Source of the DNA: an uncultured Anaerolineae bacterium
Lineage (GTDB): Bacteria; Chloroflexota; Anaerolineae; Aggregatilineales; UBA3940
Assembly: GCA_964390105.1 (NCBI GenBank)
Contig: CAYMGV010000001.1
Span: forward strand, 132,088 to 196,087
Direction of reading: 5' to 3'
Length of the DNA stretch: 64,000 nucleotides
Shown here: in pieces, positions 3,774 to 40,960 of the stretch
Layout: each line of letters starts with the position of its first letter
Position numbering within the stretch: position 1 is the stretch's first letter
The notes under the pieces: model-generated
Database searches by the model: none
Seen by the model: only the letters and a program-made list of their open reading frames with translations
Told to the model about the DNA's origin: nothing
Translations under genes and position numbers: made by a program

Positions 3774-4244
3774 ATGCCGTTGGACGTGCTGCTGCTTATC
3801 CTCAAGGTCATGATCGCACTCTCCCTGTACGGGTTTATAGGTGTTTTAGGTTGGATGCTGTGGAAAGATGTCAGTAGTTTTGCAGGAGAAAGGCTCTCAG
3901 GAGGTGTGCGTGCGGTGCTTGAAGTGACCCAAACGCACGAAGAAGTTACGCTCGCCATGGGCACTCGCTTCATTATATATAAGGAAGCGACCATTGGGCG
4001 CAGCCCGGCCAATACCATTTACCTGCCGGATAGTTATGCCAGCACACATCATGCCATTATCGCCACGCAAAACAACGCGCTGATGCTGCGCGACAACCAA
4101 AGCCGCAACGGCACGCTGCTGAATGGTGCCCCGATCTCAGATGGCGTGATCCTTTCGCATGGAGATGAGATCGGCATCGGGCGTGTTACATTCTATGTGT
4201 CGATGGGTGGCGCTGACAACACCATGAGGGAAAGCAACGCATGA
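3774..4244 (+). CDS. FhaB/FipA-like small protein: N-terminal TM helix plus FHA domain
   Basis: MPLDVLLLILKVMIALSLYGFIGVLGWMLW is a TM helix. ATIGRSPANTIYLPDSYASTHHAIIATQNNALMLRDNQSRNGTLLNG is an FHA domain. The track start at 3654 overlaps the previous gene, so I use ATG 3774, 8 nt after its stop. Confidence 0.75.
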   Translation: MPLDVLLLILKVMIALSLYGFIGVLGWMLWKDVSSFAGERLSGGVRAVLEVTQTHEEVTLAMGTRFIIYKEATIGRSPANTIYLPDSYASTHHAIIATQNNALMLRDNQSRNGTLLNGAPISDGVILSHGDEIGIGRVTFYVSMGGADNTMRESNA

Positions 4245-5113
4245 CAGACACATCTTTGATTCGCATCGGTGTGATTGGTGGATCGGGCCTGTACAACATG
4301 CCGGGCTTGAGCGATGTTGAAGAATACCAGGTCGATACGCCATTTGGCTCACCCTCGGATGCCATCGTGATCGGCACACTGGAAGGTGAGCGCGTGGCAT
4401 TCCTCGCACGGCATGGACGCGGACATCGGCACAACCCCAGTGAAGTTCCGTACCGTGCCAACATCTACGCCATGAAGACTCTTGGTGTGCAGCAGCTCAT
4501 TTCGGTGAGCGCCTGCGGTTCATTGCGCGACGATTACGCCCCCGGCCATATTGTGATCCCCGACGGTTTGTTTGATCACACCATTAAACGTCCGCGTACG
4601 TTCTTTGAGGACGGCATAGTGGCACATGTCAGCGTGGCACAACCCTATTGTGAAGACCTGCGGCAAGTGCTGCTTGAAAGCACAGAAGAAGCCGGGGCAG
4701 TCACGCATGATACGGGTGCATTCATTACTATCGAAGGGCCGCGCTTCAGCACCCGTATGGAAAGCAGCCTGTACCGTGCATGGGGGCTGTCGATCATCGG
4801 CATGACCACTTCTCCGGAGGCATTCCTCGCACGGGAAGCCAGCATATGCTACGCCGTGATGGCGCATGTCACCGATTATGACGTGTGGCATGAGAGTGAA
4901 GATCCCGTCACCGCTGAGATGGTGGTGGGAACATTGACGAAAAATATCGCTGTGGCGCAGCAGGCTGTGTCGAATGCCGTTCGCAGGCTCGCAGCATCGA
5001 AACAGGCGTGTGCCCATAACCGGGCACTGGCTGATGCCATCATGACCGACCGGCGCAAGATTCCCGTCGAGACGATTAAAAAGCTTGGCCCACTGCTTGA
5101 CGGATACCTGTAA
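4241..5113 (+). CDS. mtnP: S-methyl-5'-thioadenosine phosphorylase
   Basis: IGVIGGSGLY...VDTPFGSPSD...FLARHGRGHRHNPSEVPYRANIYAMKTLGV matches the MTAP/PNP family. ATGA overlap with the upstream gene. Confidence 0.85.
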   Translation: MTDTSLIRIGVIGGSGLYNMPGLSDVEEYQVDTPFGSPSDAIVIGTLEGERVAFLARHGRGHRHNPSEVPYRANIYAMKTLGVQQLISVSACGSLRDDYAPGHIVIPDGLFDHTIKRPRTFFEDGIVAHVSVAQPYCEDLRQVLLESTEEAGAVTHDTGAFITIEGPRFSTRMESSLYRAWGLSIIGMTTSPEAFLAREASICYAVMAHVTDYDVWHESEDPVTAEMVVGTLTKNIAVAQQAVSNAVRRLAASKQACAHNRALADAIMTDRRKIPVETIKKLGPLLDGYL

Positions 5114-23389: not shown

Positions 23390-23392
23390 CAG

Positions 23393-23474
23393 TGCCCTGG
23401 GTGGGACTCGAACCCACACGCCCAAAGGGCATAGGCCCTCAACCTACCGCGTATGCCAATTCCGCCACCAGGGC
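23393..23474 (-). tRNA. tRNA-Leu (anticodon GAG), class II long variable arm; CCA not encoded
   Basis: Acceptor GCCCTGG/CCAGGGC, anticodon stem GTAGG/CCTAT with loop TTGAGGG, variable arm GCCCTTTGGGCGT, T arm GTGGG-TTCGAGT-CCCAC. Confidence 0.9.
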
Positions 23475-32929: not shown

Positions 32930-34039
32930 CTATCTCACCAACATCGGCACATACTCATACAGCAGTCCTGTGTAAGAGAGATATATTCCCGCACTAAATG
33001 CTGCCGCTGCAAGGATTATCGCGGCCATTGAGGCGAGACAGCCACCACGTCGTCGGCGTATCTGCAGTTCCTGTGTTGTGATCGAGGCCGGGTCCTCAAT
33101 CTCTGGCAGATCGCGCGCGGTCAGATGTTGTGCCGCACGTATCGGGTTTGCCGTCATCCCCGGTGGGTTCGGACTGGCTGCAGACATTTTTGCGGGCAGG
33201 TTATTGAGGTTGCGCAGGTCGTATGCAAACTCACTGACCGTCTGGTAGCGATCATCGGGCGATTTGGCAAGTGACTGGTAAATAATGCGTTCAAGATTGC
33301 TGGGTATGCCGGGTGCCACCTTTGATGGCTGCGGAAGCGGGTCGTTGACGTGCTTCAATACAATCGCAACCGGGGTATCGGCATCATATGGGACAGCCCC
33401 GGTCACCATCTGGTACAGCACAATGCCCAATGAGTAAATATCGGAACGATGATCGCCTGATTGACCTAACCCCTGTTCCGGTGACATATAGGCTGGTGTT
33501 CCCACCATTGAGCCGCTTGCCGTCATATTAGGGCCGCTCACGATACGAGCGATACCAAAATCGGTCAGCACCACGCGGTTATCGGAATCGATCATGATAT
33601 TGGCGGGCTTGATGTCGCGGTGAACCATGCCACGATCATGCGCGTAGGCCAACGCATCGGCGATGTCGGTTGTGACTTTGATTGCCTCAGAGAGCCTCAT
33701 TGACTCTGATCTGTAGCCGAGTTCGATCAACCGCTGACGCAGAGTCGGGCCGTCAACAAATTCCATGACCATGTAGTACAGGTCGCGGCTGCCGTCGTGT
33801 TCAAAGTCATAGACCTGCACAATGCCGGGATGCTTGAGCCGTGCCACGTTACGCGCCTCACGCTCAAAGCGCTCCTTGAATTCCGGGTCTTCACCAAGGA
33901 AGGGATGAAGCACTTTCAGAGCGACATAGCGATCAAGCGATGAGTGGTACGCTTTGTAGACTTCAGCCATCCCCCCCCGCCCCAGGCGTTCGCGCAGTTC
34001 GTATTTGCCGATGGTTTTTCCAGCCAGATTTTGTGACAC
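32930..34039 (-). CDS. Hanks-type Ser/Thr protein kinase with a C-terminal TM anchor
   Basis: Contains GRGGMAEVYKA, VALKV, HRDIKPANI, DFGIA and GTPAYMSPEQ. The C-terminal hydrophobic helix is ASMAAIILAAAAFSAGIYL. Confidence 0.9.
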   Translation of the reverse strand: MSQNLAGKTIGKYELRERLGRGGMAEVYKAYHSSLDRYVALKVLHPFLGEDPEFKERFEREARNVARLKHPGIVQVYDFEHDGSRDLYYMVMEFVDGPTLRQRLIELGYRSESMRLSEAIKVTTDIADALAYAHDRGMVHRDIKPANIMIDSDNRVVLTDFGIARIVSGPNMTASGSMVGTPAYMSPEQGLGQSGDHRSDIYSLGIVLYQMVTGAVPYDADTPVAIVLKHVNDPLPQPSKVAPGIPSNLERIIYQSLAKSPDDRYQTVSEFAYDLRNLNNLPAKMSAASPNPPGMTANPIRAAQHLTARDLPEIEDPASITTQELQIRRRRGGCLASMAAIILAAAAFSAGIYLSYTGLLYEYVPMLVR

Positions 34040-34056
34040 CGCAGTTTATCCGATCG

Positions 34057-34422
34057 TCATGACGCCGAGTCAGGAATAGTGACGTCTTGGCTTATCTCAT
34101 GCTGGGGGTCTTCTTCATCATAGAACAGCTCCCCCTTTAATGTATAGACACCGGGTTTCGGTTCTGCAGTTTTAACATGCATGATAAACGTCATCTCGCG
34201 ATGAAGCGTTTCAATCACACTGAAGCTGCTTACAACAGAGCCGTCAGGGCCGCGCAATGCAAATGCCAGGTTCGGGCGATCCCGTGGGGTAAACGGCGTC
34301 ATGACCACTCGGACACGGATGCGTCGCAGATCATCGAACACCTCATGCGTGACATGCTCAATGACGATCTCTTCGCGCGGTTTCGGGACAAGGCCCGGAT
34401 CACTGATAAAATTAATATCCAT
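34057..34422 (-). CDS. Hypothetical 121-aa protein
   Basis: ORF lies between the ParB/Srx-like gene and the kinase gene on the same strand. No motif recognised; probably beta-rich. Confidence 0.5.
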   Translation of the reverse strand: MDINFISDPGLVPKPREEIVIEHVTHEVFDDLRRIRVRVVMTPFTPRDRPNLAFALRGPDGSVVSSFSVIETLHREMTFIMHVKTAEPKPGVYTLKGELFYDEEDPQHEISQDVTIPDSAS

Positions 34423-34486
34423 ACACCACCATTATAAGGTTCCGATCTGAACGTATCAAATATCCAAGATGTCCCAACACGGCCAC

Positions 34487-35344
34487 TCATTCATCAAACA
34501 GGAAGGTTGGCTCTGCATAGTAGCGTATCTCACGCTGCTGGAATTTGTGCTGCATCCATGACAGCAGTTCGCTATTTTTCTTCTCCAGTGATTTCGACGC
34601 CGCGAGTTCCTCAAGTGGGTAGTTCAGCCGCAGTGCCCTCCCCTGGATGAGGTGACGCGTAATGCCCGCGGGAACGCGCCAGCCGTTACGTGTCAGCGTC
34701 ACAATCTCATCTGGTTCCATGATGGGAAAGGATACAGCCGCAACAATCTCCGGGTAGGCGCGCATCAATTCTTCCATGTTGTTGGATGCCACGCGATCGA
34801 CCGCCGCCCGCTGGATGTATGCTGCTACGACAGCCTGAAGAAACTCTGTGAGCTTATGGAGATCCATCTGCTCACTGGGAAATGCTGTGACGGTGCCGTC
34901 AGTCCACGTACAGTATCCAATCACCGCGCGCTTTGCGATCAAGGCTTCTGCCTCGGACGGCTCAGTTTCAAACGGCGTTACACCACTCAGTTTGGTTATT
35001 CGCGCAGTCAGATCATCCTTGCTGATCCCCGAAATGGCGTGATGCCAGCTTAGCAGCGTGACGAATGGTTCTCGGTAAGGCACAACCTGCACGATGGCAT
35101 GTCCGATACCCAACAGGTCCAGTGATATTGAGCGGTTGGTGCCGTCAAGAACCATATAATCGACGGAGCCGTCAGAGGCAGGGATTTCAGTGACCAGCAC
35201 CGGACTTTTGAGAATGCTATCCTTTCGCAGTTGTTTTACGAGCGGCGTGGCACGCTGCTCATCGTGAAGCTCATGGGGGATGATACGTCCGACCGGCACT
35301 ATGCGCAGGTCGGGGATATCCTGCGAGGGTTGTTTGCCAGGCAT
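34487..35344 (-). CDS. ParB/Srx-fold protein resembling the SbnI / free-serine-kinase (SerK) family
   Basis: LRIVPVGRIIPHELHDEQRATPLVKQLRKDSILKSPVLV...YMVLDGTNRSISLDLLGIGHAIVQVVPY parallels the SbnI/SerK N-domain pattern (from memory: hHE...R...L...G.L.NPP.V...vLDGaNR...L..LG..h.lVQvV.Y). Confidence 0.6.
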   Translation of the reverse strand: MPGKQPSQDIPDLRIVPVGRIIPHELHDEQRATPLVKQLRKDSILKSPVLVTEIPASDGSVDYMVLDGTNRSISLDLLGIGHAIVQVVPYREPFVTLLSWHHAISGISKDDLTARITKLSGVTPFETEPSEAEALIAKRAVIGYCTWTDGTVTAFPSEQMDLHKLTEFLQAVVAAYIQRAAVDRVASNNMEELMRAYPEIVAAVSFPIMEPDEIVTLTRNGWRVPAGITRHLIQGRALRLNYPLEELAASKSLEKKNSELLSWMQHKFQQREIRYYAEPTFLFDE

Positions 35345-35346
35345 GA

Positions 35347-36321
35347 TTACCTCGATTCGGTGCTGTAGGTCTGGATCAGATTGTGGAGTTCGGCTACGAT
35401 GTCCGCGCGCAATGTTTCAGGTTCAAGCACTTCAACCTGCGCACCCCAGCTGCGTATCCATGGAGTCATTTCGCGTACGTCACCGATGGCAACCTCATAT
35501 TCGATTGTGCTGTCGGCATGTTCATGGATGATCTGTGAAGGATGCCAGATGCGTTCTTTGATATAGCCTGAGACTGACGGCTGAAACAACAGCCGCACCG
35601 TTGTCGTTGGGCCACTTCCGGACATGATCCCCCATGCATCCGCGAGATAGTTCTCCGGGTTAAAGGCTGACGGGATTTCGTAGGTTTCAGGCATCAGTTC
35701 AGTATGTTCGATACGGTCAAACTTAAAGGTGCGTATTTCGTTACTGAGGCTGTCATGACCTATCAGATACAACCCACCGGCACTTGACGGTTCTATGGTG
35801 TATGGACTGATGATACGTTCTTTGCTCGTTTGCGTACGTGCAGATTGATACCAGATACGCACCTGCCTGTTTTCAGCCCAGGCAACCGAGATTTCTTTCA
35901 ATACACGGACGAAACTCTCGTTAACAGGGCGCTTATGAATCGATGCTGCTGTCTGATTGATATAATCCAGCAGAGTATCCGGCAGCGCCGTCGCCAATTT
36001 GGTTAGTGCTGACACAAAGTGCGGGTTTTTCTCGTCGGAATGACGGCTCAGAAGCCGTGCGGCGATATAGAGTGCGATAGCTTCGTGAAAGGATAGTCTT
36101 ACTGTGGCAAGGTATTGATCACGAACGATACCGTAGGTTCCACGTTCCTGCCAGATGGGGACCCCTGCATCATCCAGCAGTTCAAGATCGCGATAAATGG
36201 TACGCCGATTAACCTCACACTGAGCGGCCAGCGTGGTAACCTTCACCCCCGATGGATTGCGAAACAGGATATTTTCAATCTCGCGCAGACGCGCTGCACG
36301 TGTCAGTGATTTGGACATCAC
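35347..36321 (-). CDS. HTH-WYL-WCX transcriptional regulator (YafY/PafBC/BrxR-like)
   Basis: N-terminal HTH: RLREIENILFRNPSGVKVTTLAAQCEVNRRTIYRDLELLDDAGVPI. WYL domain: VRIWYQSARTQTSKERIISPYTIEPSSAGGLYLIGHDSLSNEIRTFKFDRI. Confidence 0.85.
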   Translation of the reverse strand: MMSKSLTRAARLREIENILFRNPSGVKVTTLAAQCEVNRRTIYRDLELLDDAGVPIWQERGTYGIVRDQYLATVRLSFHEAIALYIAARLLSRHSDEKNPHFVSALTKLATALPDTLLDYINQTAASIHKRPVNESFVRVLKEISVAWAENRQVRIWYQSARTQTSKERIISPYTIEPSSAGGLYLIGHDSLSNEIRTFKFDRIEHTELMPETYEIPSAFNPENYLADAWGIMSGSGPTTTVRLLFQPSVSGYIKERIWHPSQIIHEHADSTIEYEVAIGDVREMTPWIRSWGAQVEVLEPETLRADIVAELHNLIQTYSTESR

Positions 36322-36333
36322 GTTTCTCGCTAG

Positions 36334-36858
36334 TCAGGACAAGGAGCCGTCAAAATCGATGATGATCTGATCGTTAATATAGTAGTATCTACCGAACAAT
36401 GGCCCTGCACTATTGTGTGCAAGAATAGCCGGTATCAGCACAGGCAGGTCAGGTACCATCTCATTCAGCGGCAGGTTTTCAATGGGATGCCATTCAAGCG
36501 CACCTTCAACTGAAGCGCTGACCGTATCGGAACTGACGGCACCATGAAATACGAACATGAGTATACCCACTGTATCATGATCGCCGAGTATGTTGACAAC
36601 AGCCTTAAGCGATAACCAGTTAATTATGTCTGTGATGATACCGGTTTCTTCTTCGATCTCGCGGAGTGCCGTCTGCTGAATACTTTCGCCCTTTTCGACA
36701 TGACCCCCTACCCCGTTGTAGCGGTTAGGCCATATTTTTTTTGTCGGCGCACCTTTCAGTAACAGCAGGTGGCTGTCATGTTCAAGGAATATGAGTACGC
36801 GTGGTATTGCCTGGTAACGATCAAGTGATGACGAGATACCTTGTTCCTGTGATGTCAT
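36334..36858 (-). CDS. NUDIX hydrolase
   Basis: Nudix box GVGGHVEKGESIQQTALREIEEETGI (Gx5Ex7REUxEExGU). Confidence 0.85.
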   Translation of the reverse strand: MTSQEQGISSSLDRYQAIPRVLIFLEHDSHLLLLKGAPTKKIWPNRYNGVGGHVEKGESIQQTALREIEEETGIITDIINWLSLKAVVNILGDHDTVGILMFVFHGAVSSDTVSASVEGALEWHPIENLPLNEMVPDLPVLIPAILAHNSAGPLFGRYYYINDQIIIDFDGSLS

Positions 36859-36889
36859 TCCTATTATCCTGTTGATTGCGCGTGTACAA

Positions 36890-36906
36890 CTACAATACTA
36901 TAGTAG
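36890..36906. promoter_or_regulatory. 17-nt imperfect palindrome in the divergent NUDIX/DUF2207 promoter region; candidate operator
   Basis: CTACAATA-C-TATAGTAG with 7 of 8 symmetric pairs. It contains the perfect 8-mer palindrome ACTATAGT (36897-36904). Confidence 0.3.
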
Positions 36907-36939
36907 GCAAAGAACCTATCATGCCAAGAAGAGGAGACA

Positions 36940-38847
36940 ATGCGACGTTGGCTTAGCATAGTCGGTATAGTCGTTTTACTGTTTTTCAGCTTTGCTTCAT
37001 CCGGGGAAGCAGCGGCACAGGACCGTACACTAGCCTGGAAAACATGGGATACAACCATTCGCATTAATGAGGATGGATCGTTTAATGTGCGAGAAGTGTA
37101 TGAGATTGAATTCATTGGTGGCCCGTTCACATTTGGCTTCCGCAACATCAGCCTGGATCAAGTTGAATCAATTGTCGATGTCCAGGTAAGTGAGCAGGGC
37201 CGGAACTATACGGCAGCCACCACCGAAGCCGCACAGACTTTCTACACCAACCGCGCTGATGGCGACCTCGTGGTGAATTGGTTCTACGCACCAACATCCA
37301 ACCAGACTCGTACGTTTGTAGTTGAGTATCGTGTGCTGGGTGGCCTGATCGTTGACGCTGAAGGCGATATCCTGAACTGGCAGGCCGTGGGCGAAGAACA
37401 TGCATACAGCATCCAGTCAAGTGATGTCGTGGTCGTGGTGCCTGCAGGGGCACAGATCGTCGTCGAAGACCCCCCTGCCTCACGCGGCGTTTCGGCTTCA
37501 CAGAACATCAGCAATGATGTGATGTCGGTTTCATTCAACACGTCGAATATCCCGGCCAACACACCGCTTGAGGTGTATGTACGCTTCACTCATGGTGTCA
37601 TCCCCGCTACAGCTCCGTCATGGCAGGCTGAATATGAGCGTCAAGCTGAGTGGGATACGACATGGGGGCCTGTTGCGAACCTGGCATCTGGCGCATTGGC
37701 ACTTGCCGTCCTGGTGTTCGGTGTATTGGGGGTTTATCTTCTCTGGGGCCGCCTGGGACGTGATCCCAAGACTGGGCCTGTTCCCAGCTATTTAAGTGTG
37801 CCACCTTCTGACCTGTCTCCTGGAATCGTTGGGGCCCTCGTAGACGAAAAGGTTGATTTACAGGATATCATGGCCGTGTTGATGGACCTTGCCACACGCG
37901 GCTATGTTCAAATGGAAGAACAGGAAGTCAAGGGATTTATCCGAAAAACGAGTACATTCACATTTCATCGGGTTGAAGGCTCCGGTGAACCGGAAAGAGA
38001 CTATGAACAAGACCTGCTCCGTGCTGTGTTTGGCCGCAAACAATCGGTTGACCTGGATGATCTCCAGTATAAGTTCTACGATGAAATACCCAAGTTGAAG
38101 CGAGCCATATACAACGCCCTGGTGACCGAGGGTTTATTTCCCAGGAATCCAAACGCCGTGCGCAGCCGGTGGATGGTGCTGGGTATTGGTGGTGTTGTGC
38201 TGTCATTTGGCGGTGGTTTTTGCAGCCTGGCAGCCGTTGGCAGCTACGCACCAGCGATCATCTGTTTGTTTGTTGCCAGCGGTGTGGTCTCACTGACGCT
38301 GATCGCCGTAGGCCAGGCGATGCCGGTTAAATCACAAAGAGGGGCAGAAGAAGCAGCCAAGTGGAAGGCATTCAAGGCTTATCTTACCAAAATCGAGAAT
38401 CTCGAAAACATGGAGGAGGCTGGAGACATATTCAATCGCTACCTGCCTTATGCCGTGGCATTTGGTATCGAAAAGCTGTGGATACGAACGTTTGCGAAGT
38501 ATCCTGCAACCCCCATACCGCACTGGTATTTCCCATACTGGGCAACTTCCGCACACAGATCGACGCTGGGCAAGCCTGTAGCGGGCCGCCCGACAATGCG
38601 CGATCTCAGTGCCGAACAGGTAACACCGGGGGCCAACCTGGACAGCCTGAGCGGTGGACTTGCCGGTGGCTTGGAACGCATGAGTGATGGCCTGACTTCG
38701 ATGCTTGACAGTACGGCACGAACGCTGACAAGTGTGCCGCAAAGTTCATCATCCAGTGGAGGGTTTGGGGGGTCAACGTTCAGTAGTGGTGGGTTTAGCG
38801 GCGGTGGCTTTAGTTCCGGCGGCAGTGGTGGTGCCGGGTTTGGTTAA
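36940..38847 (+). CDS. DUF2207-family membrane protein
   Basis: Signal peptide, a large N-terminal ecto-domain, and 3 or more TM helices. The characteristic Gly/Ser-rich tail is SSSSGGFGGSTFSSGGFSGGGFSSGGSGGAGFG. SD GAGGAG. Confidence 0.7.
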   Translation: MRRWLSIVGIVVLLFFSFASSGEAAAQDRTLAWKTWDTTIRINEDGSFNVREVYEIEFIGGPFTFGFRNISLDQVESIVDVQVSEQGRNYTAATTEAAQTFYTNRADGDLVVNWFYAPTSNQTRTFVVEYRVLGGLIVDAEGDILNWQAVGEEHAYSIQSSDVVVVVPAGAQIVVEDPPASRGVSASQNISNDVMSVSFNTSNIPANTPLEVYVRFTHGVIPATAPSWQAEYERQAEWDTTWGPVANLASGALALAVLVFGVLGVYLLWGRLGRDPKTGPVPSYLSVPPSDLSPGIVGALVDEKVDLQDIMAVLMDLATRGYVQMEEQEVKGFIRKTSTFTFHRVEGSGEPERDYEQDLLRAVFGRKQSVDLDDLQYKFYDEIPKLKRAIYNALVTEGLFPRNPNAVRSRWMVLGIGGVVLSFGGGFCSLAAVGSYAPAIICLFVASGVVSLTLIAVGQAMPVKSQRGAEEAAKWKAFKAYLTKIENLENMEEAGDIFNRYLPYAVAFGIEKLWIRTFAKYPATPIPHWYFPYWATSAHRSTLGKPVAGRPTMRDLSAEQVTPGANLDSLSGGLAGGLERMSDGLTSMLDSTARTLTSVPQSSSSSGGFGGSTFSSGGFSGGGFSSGGSGGAGFG

Positions 38848-38861
38848 GCAAAAGGTATAAC

Positions 38862-39362
38862 ATGTCAAAAACGGTTGGAGCCTTTCTGATTGCGGCAGGC
38901 GTGCTTGTTGGTCTACTTGGATTAGTTTTCCTGATGGTCAGTGGCGTGGCTGCTGGTGGCGCAGTTCTTGGTGCTTTTCTGCTGTTTGTCGTGCTGGTAC
39001 TTCCATTGATTGGTGGCGGTATTTACGTTATCACTCGAAGTAACAAGGACGAACAGGATGAAGACAAATCTGAAGCTATGCGCACGATCCTCAGCATGGT
39101 TGAGGCACGTGGCGCTGTCAGCATTTCCGATGTTGTGATTGAACTGAAGTCCACTACCGATGACGTAAAATCAATGGTGTATGACTTGGTGGGAATGGGG
39201 GTTTTTGAAGGCTATATCAACTGGAATGAGGGCACACTGTACTCTATGGAAGCCCAGAAACTAAAAGATATGACTGAATGCAAGAATTGTGGAGGGGCGA
39301 TCAAGCCCAGTGGTAAAGGCGTTTTTCAATGCCCGTTTTGTGGGACAGAGTACTTTCTGTAA
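38862..39362 (+). CDS. Membrane protein with a cytoplasmic winged-helix-like segment and a C-terminal zinc ribbon
   Basis: Two N-terminal TM helices. RGAVSISDVVIELKSTTDDVKSMVYDLVGMGVFEGYIN is wHTH-like. CKNCGGAI...FQCPFCGTEYF provides two CxxC pairs. Confidence 0.6.
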   Translation: MSKTVGAFLIAAGVLVGLLGLVFLMVSGVAAGGAVLGAFLLFVVLVLPLIGGGIYVITRSNKDEQDEDKSEAMRTILSMVEARGAVSISDVVIELKSTTDDVKSMVYDLVGMGVFEGYINWNEGTLYSMEAQKLKDMTECKNCGGAIKPSGKGVFQCPFCGTEYFL

Positions 39363-39386
39363 ATAGCGTGAAGGGACAAGGAGACT

Positions 39387-39914
39387 ATGCCAGACTTTTT
39401 TCAGAAAATCACGGAACAGCAGGGAACAATAGAGGAGATCGCGCGGAAGATTCCCGGCTTCAAAGGATACCTTGAAAACAATGATCGACGAGACGCAGAC
39501 CGCATGCTGCGCGAGACCCTTGTGCGTGGATTGGAAGAACAGCATCGTGAGTTTACGTCAGTGCAAAAAGATATCGTCACAAGTGGCGGCATTGCCCATA
39601 TGGAAACATTGTCAAGCATTGACAGCCGTATGCGGATGTTCATTGACAGAATAGAGAGTGCGGCGCAGGGTTATGCCGGGCTGTTTGATGCCGTGAAGGT
39701 TAAAGCCGAGCAGCTTGATAACCTTTATGCGTTTGATAACACCTTACTGGTCTATATTGATCAATTCCGCGATGGTCTTGCGGCGCTGAAAGACAGCATA
39801 GGGACTGACGCACTCGGTGAGGTTATCAAGCAGCTTGATGCCCTTGTTGACGAAGCGAATAACACATTCAAGCGTCGGGTGGAGGCCATGCAAGGCCTTC
39901 AGGATGCTGTATAA
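39387..39914 (+). CDS. Hypothetical 175-aa all-helical protein (weak PspA/ESCRT-III-like flavour, unproven)
   Basis: SD AAGGAG. The sequence is predicted helical throughout. It has an amphipathic-looking N-terminus (MPDFFQKITEQ) and heptad-like charged repeats. Confidence 0.55.
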   Translation: MPDFFQKITEQQGTIEEIARKIPGFKGYLENNDRRDADRMLRETLVRGLEEQHREFTSVQKDIVTSGGIAHMETLSSIDSRMRMFIDRIESAAQGYAGLFDAVKVKAEQLDNLYAFDNTLLVYIDQFRDGLAALKDSIGTDALGEVIKQLDALVDEANNTFKRRVEAMQGLQDAV

Positions 39915-39943
39915 TCCAGTAAATCGGGAAGCACAAGGAGAGT

Positions 39944-40960
39944 ATGATGGCACGAATTCTAGACCTTATCCAGCATCCGAATGTTGGTGGTGATGAACTG
40001 AGCTGGCGTGAGCCCCAGGGTGGCAGCGGTGATTTCCGCATCGGCTCGCAGGTTGTCGTACGTGAGAATCAGGCTGCCGTGTTTGTACGTGGCGGCGAAG
40101 CACTCGATACCCTTGGCCCCGGTACTCACACCATTACCACGGCCAATGTTCCACTGCTGATTGACTATATTGGCAGGGCATTCAACAACCAGAGTCCATT
40201 TACCGCTGAGGTGTATTTCGTCAACATTGGCGACTTCCCCCAGGTGGGTTGGGGCACATCGCAGCCCCTGGCACTGGAAACACCGGGGAAAGGCCTGGGG
40301 TGGCTCTTACTCCAGGGTCATGGCATTATGGATATCAAGATTGCTGAACCGCAGCGCTTTGCCAAACAGTATGGTATCGGCAAACCTGTCGTACGGCTCG
40401 CTGACATCCGTGAACGGCTGCTGACGATGGCCTTAGGTGAACTTCAAGATATAATCGCAACGCATGCGCCAGGTGATCTGATGGGTCTGAATCGTATGAT
40501 CCAGGAGATCGAGCAAGTTATGCTGGTTCAGCTTCGCGATAAGTTTGAAGCTGTTGGCCTGACCTTAAAGGCTTTCGAGATGAAGCCGCTTACGGCTGCC
40601 CCAACCTCCGCTGAAGACCTGCGGAATATGGGCCTGCTGGATGTGGCAACATACCAGGCGCTGCAGGCTGCTGATGCACTGCGTGATGCCGCTAAAAACG
40701 AGGGTGGCACGGCTGGTGCCGGTGTAGGGCTTGGTGCCGGACTTGGGCTTGGGCAGATGATGGCTGGAGCATTCGCTGGTCAACAGCAGCAGCAACAGCA
40801 ACCTCAGCAGCAGTCTTCAGCTCCGTCGAACCCACAGACTGCTGAAGAAATTCAGTCACTTCTGGATAATCTCGATATGAGGCTGGCTAACGGGGAAATA
40901 ACTGAGACTGCTTACAACCGGCTGTACGAAAAATGGCAGGGTAAGCTTAACGAGCTTTAG
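39944..40960 (+). CDS. SPFH/band-7 superfamily protein of the YdjI / 'virion core protein'-like type (COG4260), with a poly-Gln linker and a SHOCT-like C-terminus
   Basis: DLIQHPNVGGDELSWREPQGGSGDFRIGSQVVVRENQAAVFVRGGEALDTLGPGTHTITTANVPLL is typical of this family. The protein also has a QQQQQQQPQQQ linker and ends TAEEIQSLLDNLDMRLANGEITETAYNRLYEKW. Confidence 0.7.
   Translation: MMARILDLIQHPNVGGDELSWREPQGGSGDFRIGSQVVVRENQAAVFVRGGEALDTLGPGTHTITTANVPLLIDYIGRAFNNQSPFTAEVYFVNIGDFPQVGWGTSQPLALETPGKGLGWLLLQGHGIMDIKIAEPQRFAKQYGIGKPVVRLADIRERLLTMALGELQDIIATHAPGDLMGLNRMIQEIEQVMLVQLRDKFEAVGLTLKAFEMKPLTAAPTSAEDLRNMGLLDVATYQALQAADALRDAAKNEGGTAGAGVGLGAGLGLGQMMAGAFAGQQQQQQQPQQQSSAPSNPQTAEEIQSLLDNLDMRLANGEITETAYNRLYEKWQGKLNEL

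Follow-up and report, generated by a model that had tools for sequence, protein, structure and literature searches.

Organization of the locus

We analyzed a five-gene cluster situated in a 64,000-nucleotide (nt) stretch of DNA from an uncultured Anaerolineae bacterium (GenBank assembly GCA_964390105.1, contig CAYMGV010000001.1, positions 132,088 to 196,087 of the forward strand), hereafter the window. The cluster had previously been described from the sequence alone as an operon encoding a NUDIX hydrolase, a WYL regulator, a ParB/sulfiredoxin (Srx)-fold protein resembling SbnI and SerK, a 121-amino acid (aa) protein and a Ser/Thr kinase; this description, which read the cluster as a small-molecule or nucleotide signalling unit and not a metabolic pathway, is referred to below as the original prediction. 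The five consecutive minus-strand genes and the gaps of 12, 2, 64 and 17 nt between them match the table of open reading frames (ORFs), and the five domain assignments were borne out with Pfam and NCBIfam. The genes and spacers are listed below in window coordinates.

36859-36939, no strand: divergent spacer of 81 nt between the NUDIX gene and a DUF2207 gene, with a promoter-like site and a near-palindrome
36334-36858, minus strand: NUDIX hydrolase, 174 aa (ORF listing, PF00293)
35347-36321, minus strand: HTH_11–WYL–WCX transcription regulator, 324 aa (ORF listing, Pfam)
34487-35344, minus strand: putative free L-serine kinase of the SbnI/SerK type, 285 aa (ORF listing, NCBIfam, fold), hereafter the SerK-like protein
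34423-34486, minus strand: spacer of 64 nt between the SerK-like gene and the u121 gene, with a promoter-like site
34057-34422, minus strand: u121, stand-alone protein of an uncharacterised Chloroflexi family, 121 aa
32930-34039, minus strand: Hanks-type Ser/Thr protein kinase (STK), 369 aa (Pkinase)

A putative free L-serine kinase

Two NCBIfam models match the 285-aa protein: that of SbnI over the full length, from position 7 to 252 of 254 (1.7e-25), and that of archaeal SerK (1.7e-09). A Pfam scan of the same protein gave no match, with neither ParBc nor a helix-turn-helix (HTH) domain at E ≤ 0.1. When a family profile built on 25 homologues was compared with the PDB, it retrieved SbnI (~1e-24, SbnI residues 7-251) and SerK (3.6e-11, residues 14-240). 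The AlphaFold2 (AF2) model of the protein (pLDDT 89.8) led to the same relatives: the top 9 Foldseek matches in the PDB are all SbnI or SerK structures (E 1e-18 to 5e-14, template modelling (TM) score 0.77-0.81 by target). The next matches, Noc, ParB and sulfiredoxin, are far weaker and align to ~85 residues of the N-domain only, with a TM score of 0.24 by query for the ParB and Noc structures. Because the SbnI/SerK match covers both domains and the ParB/Srx match is confined to the first, the protein is not an ordinary ParB or nuclease, the alternative that the original prediction had kept in view. Its predicted structure is instead a complete free-serine-kinase architecture, in which a ParB/Srx-like N-domain is followed by a C-domain specific to SerK and SbnI.

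We then compared the catalytic residues. A passage of PMC9641203 citing Verstraete et al. 2018 describes Glu20 and Asp58 of SbnI as needed for kinase activity, and E30 of SerK is, by the entry titles, the residue mutated (E30A, E30Q) in PDB 5x0e/5x0g/5x0j/5x0k. In HMMER alignments SbnI H19-E20 and SerK H29-E30 fall on the invariant H24-E25 of the window family and SbnI D58 on the invariant D67 of an LDGxNR motif, and the TRH motif of SerK corresponds to the invariant T229-R230-H231. The alignment of the 25 homologues has 42 invariant columns, and both putative catalytic residues, E25 and D67, are invariant in it. Profile matches, predicted fold and catalytic residues thus all reinforce the SbnI/SerK assignment of the 285-aa protein. 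The enzyme would form the catalytic core of the cluster and most likely interconvert L-serine and O-phospho-L-serine with a nucleotide as phosphate donor; E25 would act as the catalytic base, and D67 and R71 of the DGxxR motif would lie at the nucleotide site.

That the 285-aa protein is mainly a ParB-like DNA-binding regulator or nuclease, and not a metabolic kinase, seems very improbable to us. Such a role could be argued from the annotation of SbnI as a bifunctional transcriptional regulator/O-phospho-L-serine synthase, from a report of nuclease activity in PF0380, the homologue from P. furiosus (PMC5120207), and from the name 'L-serine kinase (ATP) / ParB family transcriptional regulator' that JGI gives to some members of the family. 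However, no HTH or other DNA-binding domain was detected with Pfam, the two-domain kinase match is complete with catalytic residues invariant in 25 diverse members, canonical ParB, Noc and Srx reach no further than the N-domain, and orthologues in sister clades lie in metabolic operons (see below).

Compared with the two known enzymes of this type, the window protein is similar in architecture and distant in sequence. With SbnI of Staphylococcus aureus / S. pseudintermedius, which belongs to staphyloferrin B synthesis, it shares a two-domain match over the full length (Foldseek E ~1e-18, TM score 0.77-0.80 by target), the equivalents of Glu20 and Asp58, the C-terminal PAG-TR motif and the final YxE segment. 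In contrast, identity to SbnI is only ~23%, the window protein is ~30 residues longer, and its partners are the NUDIX, WYL, u121 and STK genes, the sbn siderophore operon and the SbnA/SbnB neighbours being absent from the window. The ADP-dependent SerK of Thermococcus kodakarensis (TK0378) matches in fold, in the Glu30 equivalent and in the DGxxR and TRH motifs, but identity is ~20% and the window family is bacterial (Chloroflexota, Eisenbacteria). To our knowledge, characterised free-serine kinases are limited to SerK of a few hyperthermophilic archaea and SbnI of the staphylococcal siderophore pathway. Makino et al. 2016 found no clear-cut bacterial homologues of SerK (PMC5120207), and a 2025 survey of the ParB-CTPase fold mentioned only SerK, SbnI and Srx as enzymatic offshoots (PMC12704722). 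The window enzyme represents a new bacterial branch of the SbnI/SerK family.

Genomic contexts of the SerK-like family

To place the gene among its relatives we ran a SerK-centred scan with one genome per species, which gave 173 relatives, and analyzed the best 80 loci; neighbouring ORFs were picked by conservation weighting and then clustered. WIN denotes the window's own locus and L-numbers the loci of relatives. The best 80 of the 173 loci come from Chloroflexota, mostly Anaerolineae, and from Candidatus Eisenbacteria. Four types of context were found, and in a neighbour-joining tree they are clade-specific inside one family. In the window's clade (context 1) a DUF2207 gene is divergent from a series comprising NUDIX, in some loci WYL, then SerK-like, u121 and STK. 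In a second Anaerolineae clade (context 2) a divergent NUDIX gene faces SerK-like, ACT_7 and u121 genes, at times followed by STK. In an Anaerolineales clade (context 3) the SerK-like gene lies either between the genes for cystathionine β-synthase (CBS) and the phosphoserine aminotransferase SerC (CBS>SerK-like>SerC) or in a series with glycine cleavage (GCV) and serine hydroxymethyltransferase (SHMT) genes (GcvH–GcvP–GcvP–SHMT>SerK-like>SerC>SerA-like). In Eisenbacteria (context 4) it precedes genes for a Zn-dependent dehydrogenase, a small membrane protein and a CCG/4Fe-4S protein.

In context 3 SerC scores 505 bits against an NCBIfam equivalog cut-off of 253 and cystathionine β-synthase 529 bits against 510, the dehydrogenase is nearest to phosphoglycerate dehydrogenase (PGDH), and SHMT, GcvP and GcvH were confirmed by Pfam. 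The partners that Makino et al. proposed for SerK are a pyridoxal phosphate (PLP)-dependent sulfhydrylase that makes cysteine from O-phosphoserine and, for serine assimilation, phosphoserine aminotransferase together with 3-phosphoglycerate dehydrogenase (PMC5120207). Going by the predicted functions, context 3 holds exactly the enzymes proposed as SerK partners: a cysteine-synthase-type PLP enzyme, phosphoserine aminotransferase, 3-phosphoglycerate dehydrogenase and GlyA all adjoin sister-clade orthologues of the window gene. The CBS- and SerC-linked orthologues form one tight family at 36-44% identity, and the SerK-like family as a whole, at 36-55% identity, has its invariant residues in common. 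Given this tight family and the common invariant residues, we infer the same chemistry for the window protein, whose core function is most likely metabolic, acting on serine/O-phosphoserine. The claim that the cluster is not a metabolic pathway was not supported for this gene, as its orthologues occupy explicit serine, glycine and cysteine operons.

A comparable question of reaction direction has been raised for another family. The DUF1015 protein 'SerBK', whose fold resembles that of SbnI, has serine/phosphoserine as its proposed substrate and adjoins serA (GapMind 2026 preprint, 10.1101/2024.10.14.618325), so that it shares this question with the SHMT–SerK-like–SerC–SerA operons. It is, however, a separate family with only remote structural resemblance to SbnI, and Pfam gave no DUF1015 match here. 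Where a serine kinase is encoded in a serA/serC operon, whether such enzymes replace SerB is an open issue (bioRxiv 10.1101/2024.10.14.618325).

Two of the contexts deserve description in their own right. In L014, L019 and L020 (~0-12 kb) the GcvH–GcvP–GcvP–SHMT–SerK-like–SerC–PGDH-like operon looks like a compact set that would tie glycine cleavage to 3-phosphoglycerate via a serine kinase step. A glycine riboswitch was not detected in the Rfam scan, which covered L014 and L019 but not L020, and more generally neither the window nor any of 10 related loci, GCV operons included, gave a riboswitch match in Rfam. In about 28 species of Candidatus Eisenbacteria, with loci among L026-L079, the SerK-like gene is followed by a gene for a 342-aa Zn-dependent dehydrogenase that is PIG3/quinone-oxidoreductase-like; genes for a small membrane protein and for a GlcF/HdrD-like CCG/4Fe-4S protein often come next.

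Linkage of NUDIX, SerK-like, ACT_7 and u121 genes

An independent sample of metagenome contigs centred on u121 was examined by hidden Markov model (HMM) analysis. Upstream sequence of 2.6 kb or more was available for 47 loci, a number that includes some duplicate copies (for example most of the seven loci with none of the three genes below). Of these 47, 35 have a SerK-like gene, 36 an ACT_7 gene and 31 a NUDIX gene, which is usually divergent; all three are present in 27. ACT_7 (PF13840) is an ACT-type domain, and ACT domains typically bind amino acids. In its 36 loci the gene lies directly upstream of u121, between the SerK-like gene and u121. The flanks of the module are unrelated from one locus to another (FtsH, peptidase S9, DnaG/sigma-70, POR, methylase/MDH), and outside the closest relatives it persists with u121 proteins that are 31-45% identical and kinases that are 36-50% identical. 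Among the SerK-centred loci, the NUDIX orthologous group adjoins the SerK-like gene in 13/81, usually divergently; it was found divergent, co-directional and once downstream in the CBS context (L031), and this variation of orientation and position points to selection on the linkage. The module conserved across Anaerolineae is NUDIX | SerK-like – ACT_7 – u121. In the closest relatives (L001-L008, L028) the entire region is syntenic, including DUF2207–SPFH, S1, YkuD and the PD40 protein, so that co-conservation there says little and the distant comparisons are the informative ones.

In the window the 64-nt spacer occupies the position of the ACT_7 gene: the window's lineage has lost ACT_7 and gained the WYL gene. 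The cluster would then be a lineage-specific version of the Anaerolineae module. Of the co-conservation expected for the five genes, the part that stands is that of NUDIX, the SerK-like gene and u121, which stay together in distant Anaerolineae with differing flanks. Conservation of all five as a single unit does not stand, the WYL gene being present in 6/11 loci of the window's clade and adjacent nowhere else, and STK following u121 in 4/55 u121-centred loci.

These data also bear on the idea that there is no functional unit at all. On this view a NUDIX hydrolase of the housekeeping MutT/MTH1-like kind, a WYL regulator unrelated to it, a serine kinase, a small orphan protein and a kinase like PknB would act independently of each other, their genes adjoining through synteny inherited within one Anaerolineae lineage. 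The synteny of the whole region in the closest relatives would fit this idea, as would the patchy occurrence of WYL and STK, the two promoter-like sites described below, the closest solved relatives of the NUDIX protein (MTH1 and NudI) and the distance of ~7 kb between the SerK-like gene and u121 in L088. Yet the module persists beyond the closest relatives despite changed flanks, and the NUDIX gene changes orientation and position while the linkage stays. We therefore consider mere juxtaposition unlikely.

The original prediction had not recognised a described system in the cluster. Nor did our literature search return any description of this gene association, and nothing was found in it on the Chloroflexi/Eisenbacteria SerK-like family, its operon contexts or the association of ACT_7, u121 and NUDIX. 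Two small membrane proteins without a Pfam match are encoded after the NUDIX gene, on its strand, in the second Anaerolineae clade; they occur in L082 3242-4029 (minus strand), in L084 2113-2860 (minus strand) and in ~26 further loci, and not in the window or its clade. The first protein (28 loci) is ~140 aa long with an N-terminal transmembrane segment and a Cys-rich tail; the second (19 loci) is ~100 aa long with several transmembrane segments.

Proposed function of the cluster

We lean, with some reserve, towards the cluster being a regulated serine/O-phosphoserine kinase module with accessory genes. The SerK-like enzyme would be its core, u121 (and elsewhere also ACT_7) an accessory or regulatory subunit, the NUDIX protein a conserved yet unexplained partner, and WYL and STK lineage-specific regulatory additions. 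Overall the cluster looks like regulated amino-acid metabolism with a small partner protein, and not like a new defence or nucleotide-signalling system.

Several observations weigh against this interpretation. The enzymes of O-phosphoserine metabolism (CBS, SerC, SerA-like, SHMT, GCV) adjoin the sister-clade orthologues and none lies within 64 kb in the window: tblastn of the 64-kb window found no ACT_7, SerC, CBS, SerA, SHMT, GcvP, GcvH, Zn-ADH or GlcF-like gene, so that neither genes of serine, cysteine and glycine metabolism nor ACT_7 were found there. The 285-aa protein scores below the NCBIfam equivalog cut-offs, with 89.8 against 350 bits for SbnI and 37.2 against 380 for SerK; as the scores are far under these values, the protein is a homologue, and not an equivalog, of SbnI or SerK. 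With regard to the phosphate donor, an archaeal SerK-like protein has been reported to bind CTP and not ATP (PMC12704722). It is not obvious what the conserved NUDIX partner would do in serine metabolism. Finally, the kinase is not always part of the module. In L093, L096, L155 and L170 no SerK-like gene separates the NUDIX gene from the divergent ACT_7–u121 pair, and in L119 a protein with two TIR_2 domains (3843-4697, plus strand; Pfam 3e-28) takes the slot of the kinase between NUDIX and ACT_7–u121. The four kinase-less loci, together with L088, indicate that the NUDIX–ACT_7–u121 trio and the kinase are separable, and the tandem-TIR case, a single locus, hints that the slot is exchangeable. 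A sensor cassette whose enzyme can be exchanged would account for the kinase-less trio and the TIR case no less well than a metabolic operon.

A more explicit form of this idea is that NUDIX–ACT_7–u121 constitutes an autonomous Anaerolineae sensor/regulator cassette with an exchangeable enzyme slot, in which the SerK-like enzyme would make or consume a phosphorylated signal and the NUDIX protein clear the nucleotide co-product, the window having swapped ACT_7 for WYL and a Hanks kinase. As a whole we judge it quite unlikely, and the regulated serine/O-phosphoserine kinase module remains our preferred interpretation. The locus leads to a large bacterial SerK-like family in Chloroflexota and Eisenbacteria, whose GCV–SHMT–SerC–SerA and CBS–SerC contexts suggest a serine-kinase route that may serve serine assimilation, cysteine synthesis or the replacement of SerB, a live question in pathway gap-filling (GapMind 2026). 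Its partner set, namely ACT_7, a small Ig-like Chloroflexi family and NUDIX, offers testable candidates for the regulation of a free-amino-acid kinase. The value of the locus thus lies in pathway biology and in a defined u121 family; present evidence does not amount to a new defence or second-messenger system.

The u121 protein

Scans of u121 with Pfam, NCBIfam and PADLOC gave no match, and neither a signal peptide nor a transmembrane segment is evident from its sequence. A word-indexed search with u121 alone found only itself; homologues were reached via a profile built from locus-derived homologues. There are at least 834, all without a Pfam domain and annotated at most as 'hypothetical protein', and those that carry an organism name are all from Chloroflexi. 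An exhaustive HMM search gave 463 representatives, and the best 150 of the 463 are stand-alone proteins of 73-208 aa; no fusion occurs among these 150, so that they provide no Rosetta-stone clue to the function of u121.

The AF2 model of u121, calculated from a 56-sequence alignment, is a 7-stranded Ig-like β-sandwich predicted with confidence (pLDDT 90.6, pTM 0.82). An invariant threonine, T42, lies in its TPF motif. Foldseek matched this model only to Ig-like domains of glycoside hydrolase family 2 (GH2) glycosidases, with TM scores of 0.5-0.63 and 11-19% identity; we rejected the resemblance as functional evidence, regarding it as a generic fold match. Nothing in the predicted structure points to catalysis, and the most economical reading of the model is that u121 would be a protein-binding accessory.

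Promoters and the near-palindrome of the divergent spacer

The 17-nt near-palindrome that the original prediction had located at 36890-36906 is present in the 81-nt divergent spacer (sequence CTACAATACTATAGTAG), and 7/8 of its pairs are complementary. Near-palindromes of equal quality occur 24 times in the 64-kb window, that is at the chance rate of ~1 per 2.7 kb, and the chance of finding one in an 81-nt spacer is ~3%, which is mildly unusual. When the spacers between NUDIX and DUF2207 were aligned, only an ACTATA(A/G)T element proved conserved; it is kept both in loci with the WYL gene (L002, L008) and in loci without it (L003, L004, L028). The complete near-palindrome is unique to the window, its second arm not being retained in the relatives. 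As a WYL operator the palindrome was rejected on conservation and background frequency, since relatives retain only the −10-like half and do so also without WYL. A promoter scan identified a promoter-like sequence for the minus-strand genes, TTGGCA-16-TACTAT (36927-36900), which overlies the conserved element, and the other palindrome arm reads TACAAT on the DUF2207 strand. The proposed operator would most simply be two back-to-back −10-like hexamers. When 25 other loci were searched for a shared operator in the spacer between divergent NUDIX and SerK-like genes, only an extended −10-like TGCTA(A/C)(T/G)CT motif emerged.

The spacer upstream of u121 holds a second promoter-like sequence, TTGATA-17-TATAAT (34459-34431), with 11/12 matches, which ends 8 nt before the u121 ATG. 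A TATAAT hexamer lies 7-11 nt before the u121 start in 7/8 close relatives (WIN, L001-L004, L007, L028). This suggests a second transcript, u121–STK, that would be leaderless or have a very short leader. The cluster probably comprises two transcription units, NUDIX–WYL–SerK-like from the divergent promoter and u121–STK from its own promoter.

The NUDIX hydrolase and the WYL regulator

The NUDIX protein matches PF00293 at 1.1e-16 and has a complete Nudix box, read from the translation as GGHVEKGESIQQTALREIEEETGI (consensus GX5EX7REUXEEXGU). Its best solved relatives are MTH1/NUDT1 (5e-10, 42.8 bits) and NudI (2.5e-06), both weak matches. No NCBIfam equivalog was reached, the scores of 18.7-18.8 bits lying under the MutT equivalog cut-offs of 97.9 and 148. 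On whether it is a housekeeping MutT, the comparison points partly that way: the closest solved relatives, of the MTH1/NudI type, are nearer to MutT than to a degrader of signals, but the matches are weak. We know of no pairing of MTH1/NudI enzymes with a SerK-like gene, ACT_7 or u121.

The 324-aa regulator contains HTH_11 (3.6e-09), WYL (1.4e-15) and WCX (7e-18) domains, all above the Pfam cut-offs, and matches WYL models of PADLOC at 1e-38 and 1e-35. It also matches positions 2-318 of the 1009-position 'Cas3c' model of PADLOC at 1.1e-86, a model that evidently includes an N-terminal fusion to a WYL regulator. With PafBC, DriD, BrxR and CapW the protein shares the HTH–WYL–WCX order, the size and a place near a divergent promoter at the head of an operon. 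It differs from them in that no defence, DNA-damage or CRISPR genes lie alongside (no search was aimed at cas genes in the window), that no conserved operator was found and that most instances of the module lack the gene. The loci of the window's clade in which it lies between the NUDIX and kinase genes are WIN, L001, L002, L006, L007 and L008, and it is missing from that position in L003, L004, L028 and all u121-centred metagenome loci. The WYL gene would have been inserted between the NUDIX and kinase genes and may act as a local regulator of the NUDIX–WYL–SerK-like unit.

The Hanks-type kinase

The STK protein matches PF00069 (Pkinase) at 8.9e-50 over model positions 1-253 of 263. It consists of the kinase domain, a linker and one C-terminal transmembrane helix at aa 334-352 (nt 32984-33040, a hydrophobic peak), with only 17 residues beyond it. 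Its relatives are 490-632 aa long and have an extracellular domain, which is N_BRCA1_IG in L086. No remnant of such a domain was found in the window, which indicates that the sensor part was deleted in this lineage. Like the Hanks kinases PknB/Stk1 and PD-T4-6 of PADLOC, the window STK has a strong kinase domain (NCBIfam PknB-type model 7e-113, under the cut-off; PADLOC 6e-107) followed by a single transmembrane helix; unlike PknB/Stk1 it has neither PASTA repeats nor an extracellular domain, and its PADLOC matches are largely confined to the kinase domain. The gene follows u121 in the window's clade and in few others. A membrane-anchored STK without a sensor domain, placed after u121, could add a phospho-regulatory layer.

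Defence genes and surroundings of the cluster

In searches of PADLOC-DB v2 no system-specific defence proteins were found in the cluster. The matches are generic and at domain level (WYL, Hanks kinase/PD-T4-6/mad6, and NUDIX PDC-S07 at 2e-08), and there is none for the SerK-like protein or u121. These results bear on the signalling unit of the original prediction, possibly serving defence or stress, in which the kinase would make a phosphorylated signal, the NUDIX hydrolase degrade a ligand derived from nucleotides, WYL sense this ligand and control transcription, and STK relay the output. Such a unit could draw on the linkage of NUDIX, SerK-like and u121 genes over deep divergence, in both orientations and with unrelated flanks, on the persistence of NUDIX–ACT_7–u121 without the kinase, whose slot is filled by a tandem TIR_2 protein in one locus, on the matches of the WYL protein to CRISPR/defence-associated models and on a u121 family without known function. 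But the kinase comes from a single tight family otherwise found in SerC/SerA/SHMT/GCV and CBS operons, WYL is missing from most instances of the module, even in the close relatives L003, L004 and L028, STK follows u121 in only a few loci, the two most specific proteins have no PADLOC match, the proposed WYL operator is unconserved, the TIR case is one locus, and the neighbourhood is housekeeping and syntenic, not an island. We regard a signalling or defence role, the main alternative to our interpretation, as improbable.

The flanking genes are indeed of the housekeeping kind (HflX, S1, YkuD, PD40, M23, DUF2207/SPFH), and a XerC-like recombinase near the cluster is itself syntenic in relatives. 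Between 34001 and 44000 the G+C content of the window is 0.51-0.53, against 0.54-0.62 in most of the remainder, and the GC skew is positive at 38-42 kb; as this low-G+C region is syntenic in relatives, a recent island is unlikely. A tRNA-Leu(gag) was predicted by ARAGORN at 23392-23474 (minus strand), and Rfam at the gathering threshold gives only tRNA-Gln and tRNA-Met. On the other side of the divergent spacer, at 36940-40960 (plus strand), lie genes for a DUF2207 protein, a 166-aa protein, a 175-aa protein and an SPFH (Band_7_1) protein, syntenic with the five genes in the closest relatives. Pfam gave no match for the 166-aa and 175-aa proteins, the first of which begins with hydrophobic segments and has a zinc-ribbon-like CxxC…CxxC end.

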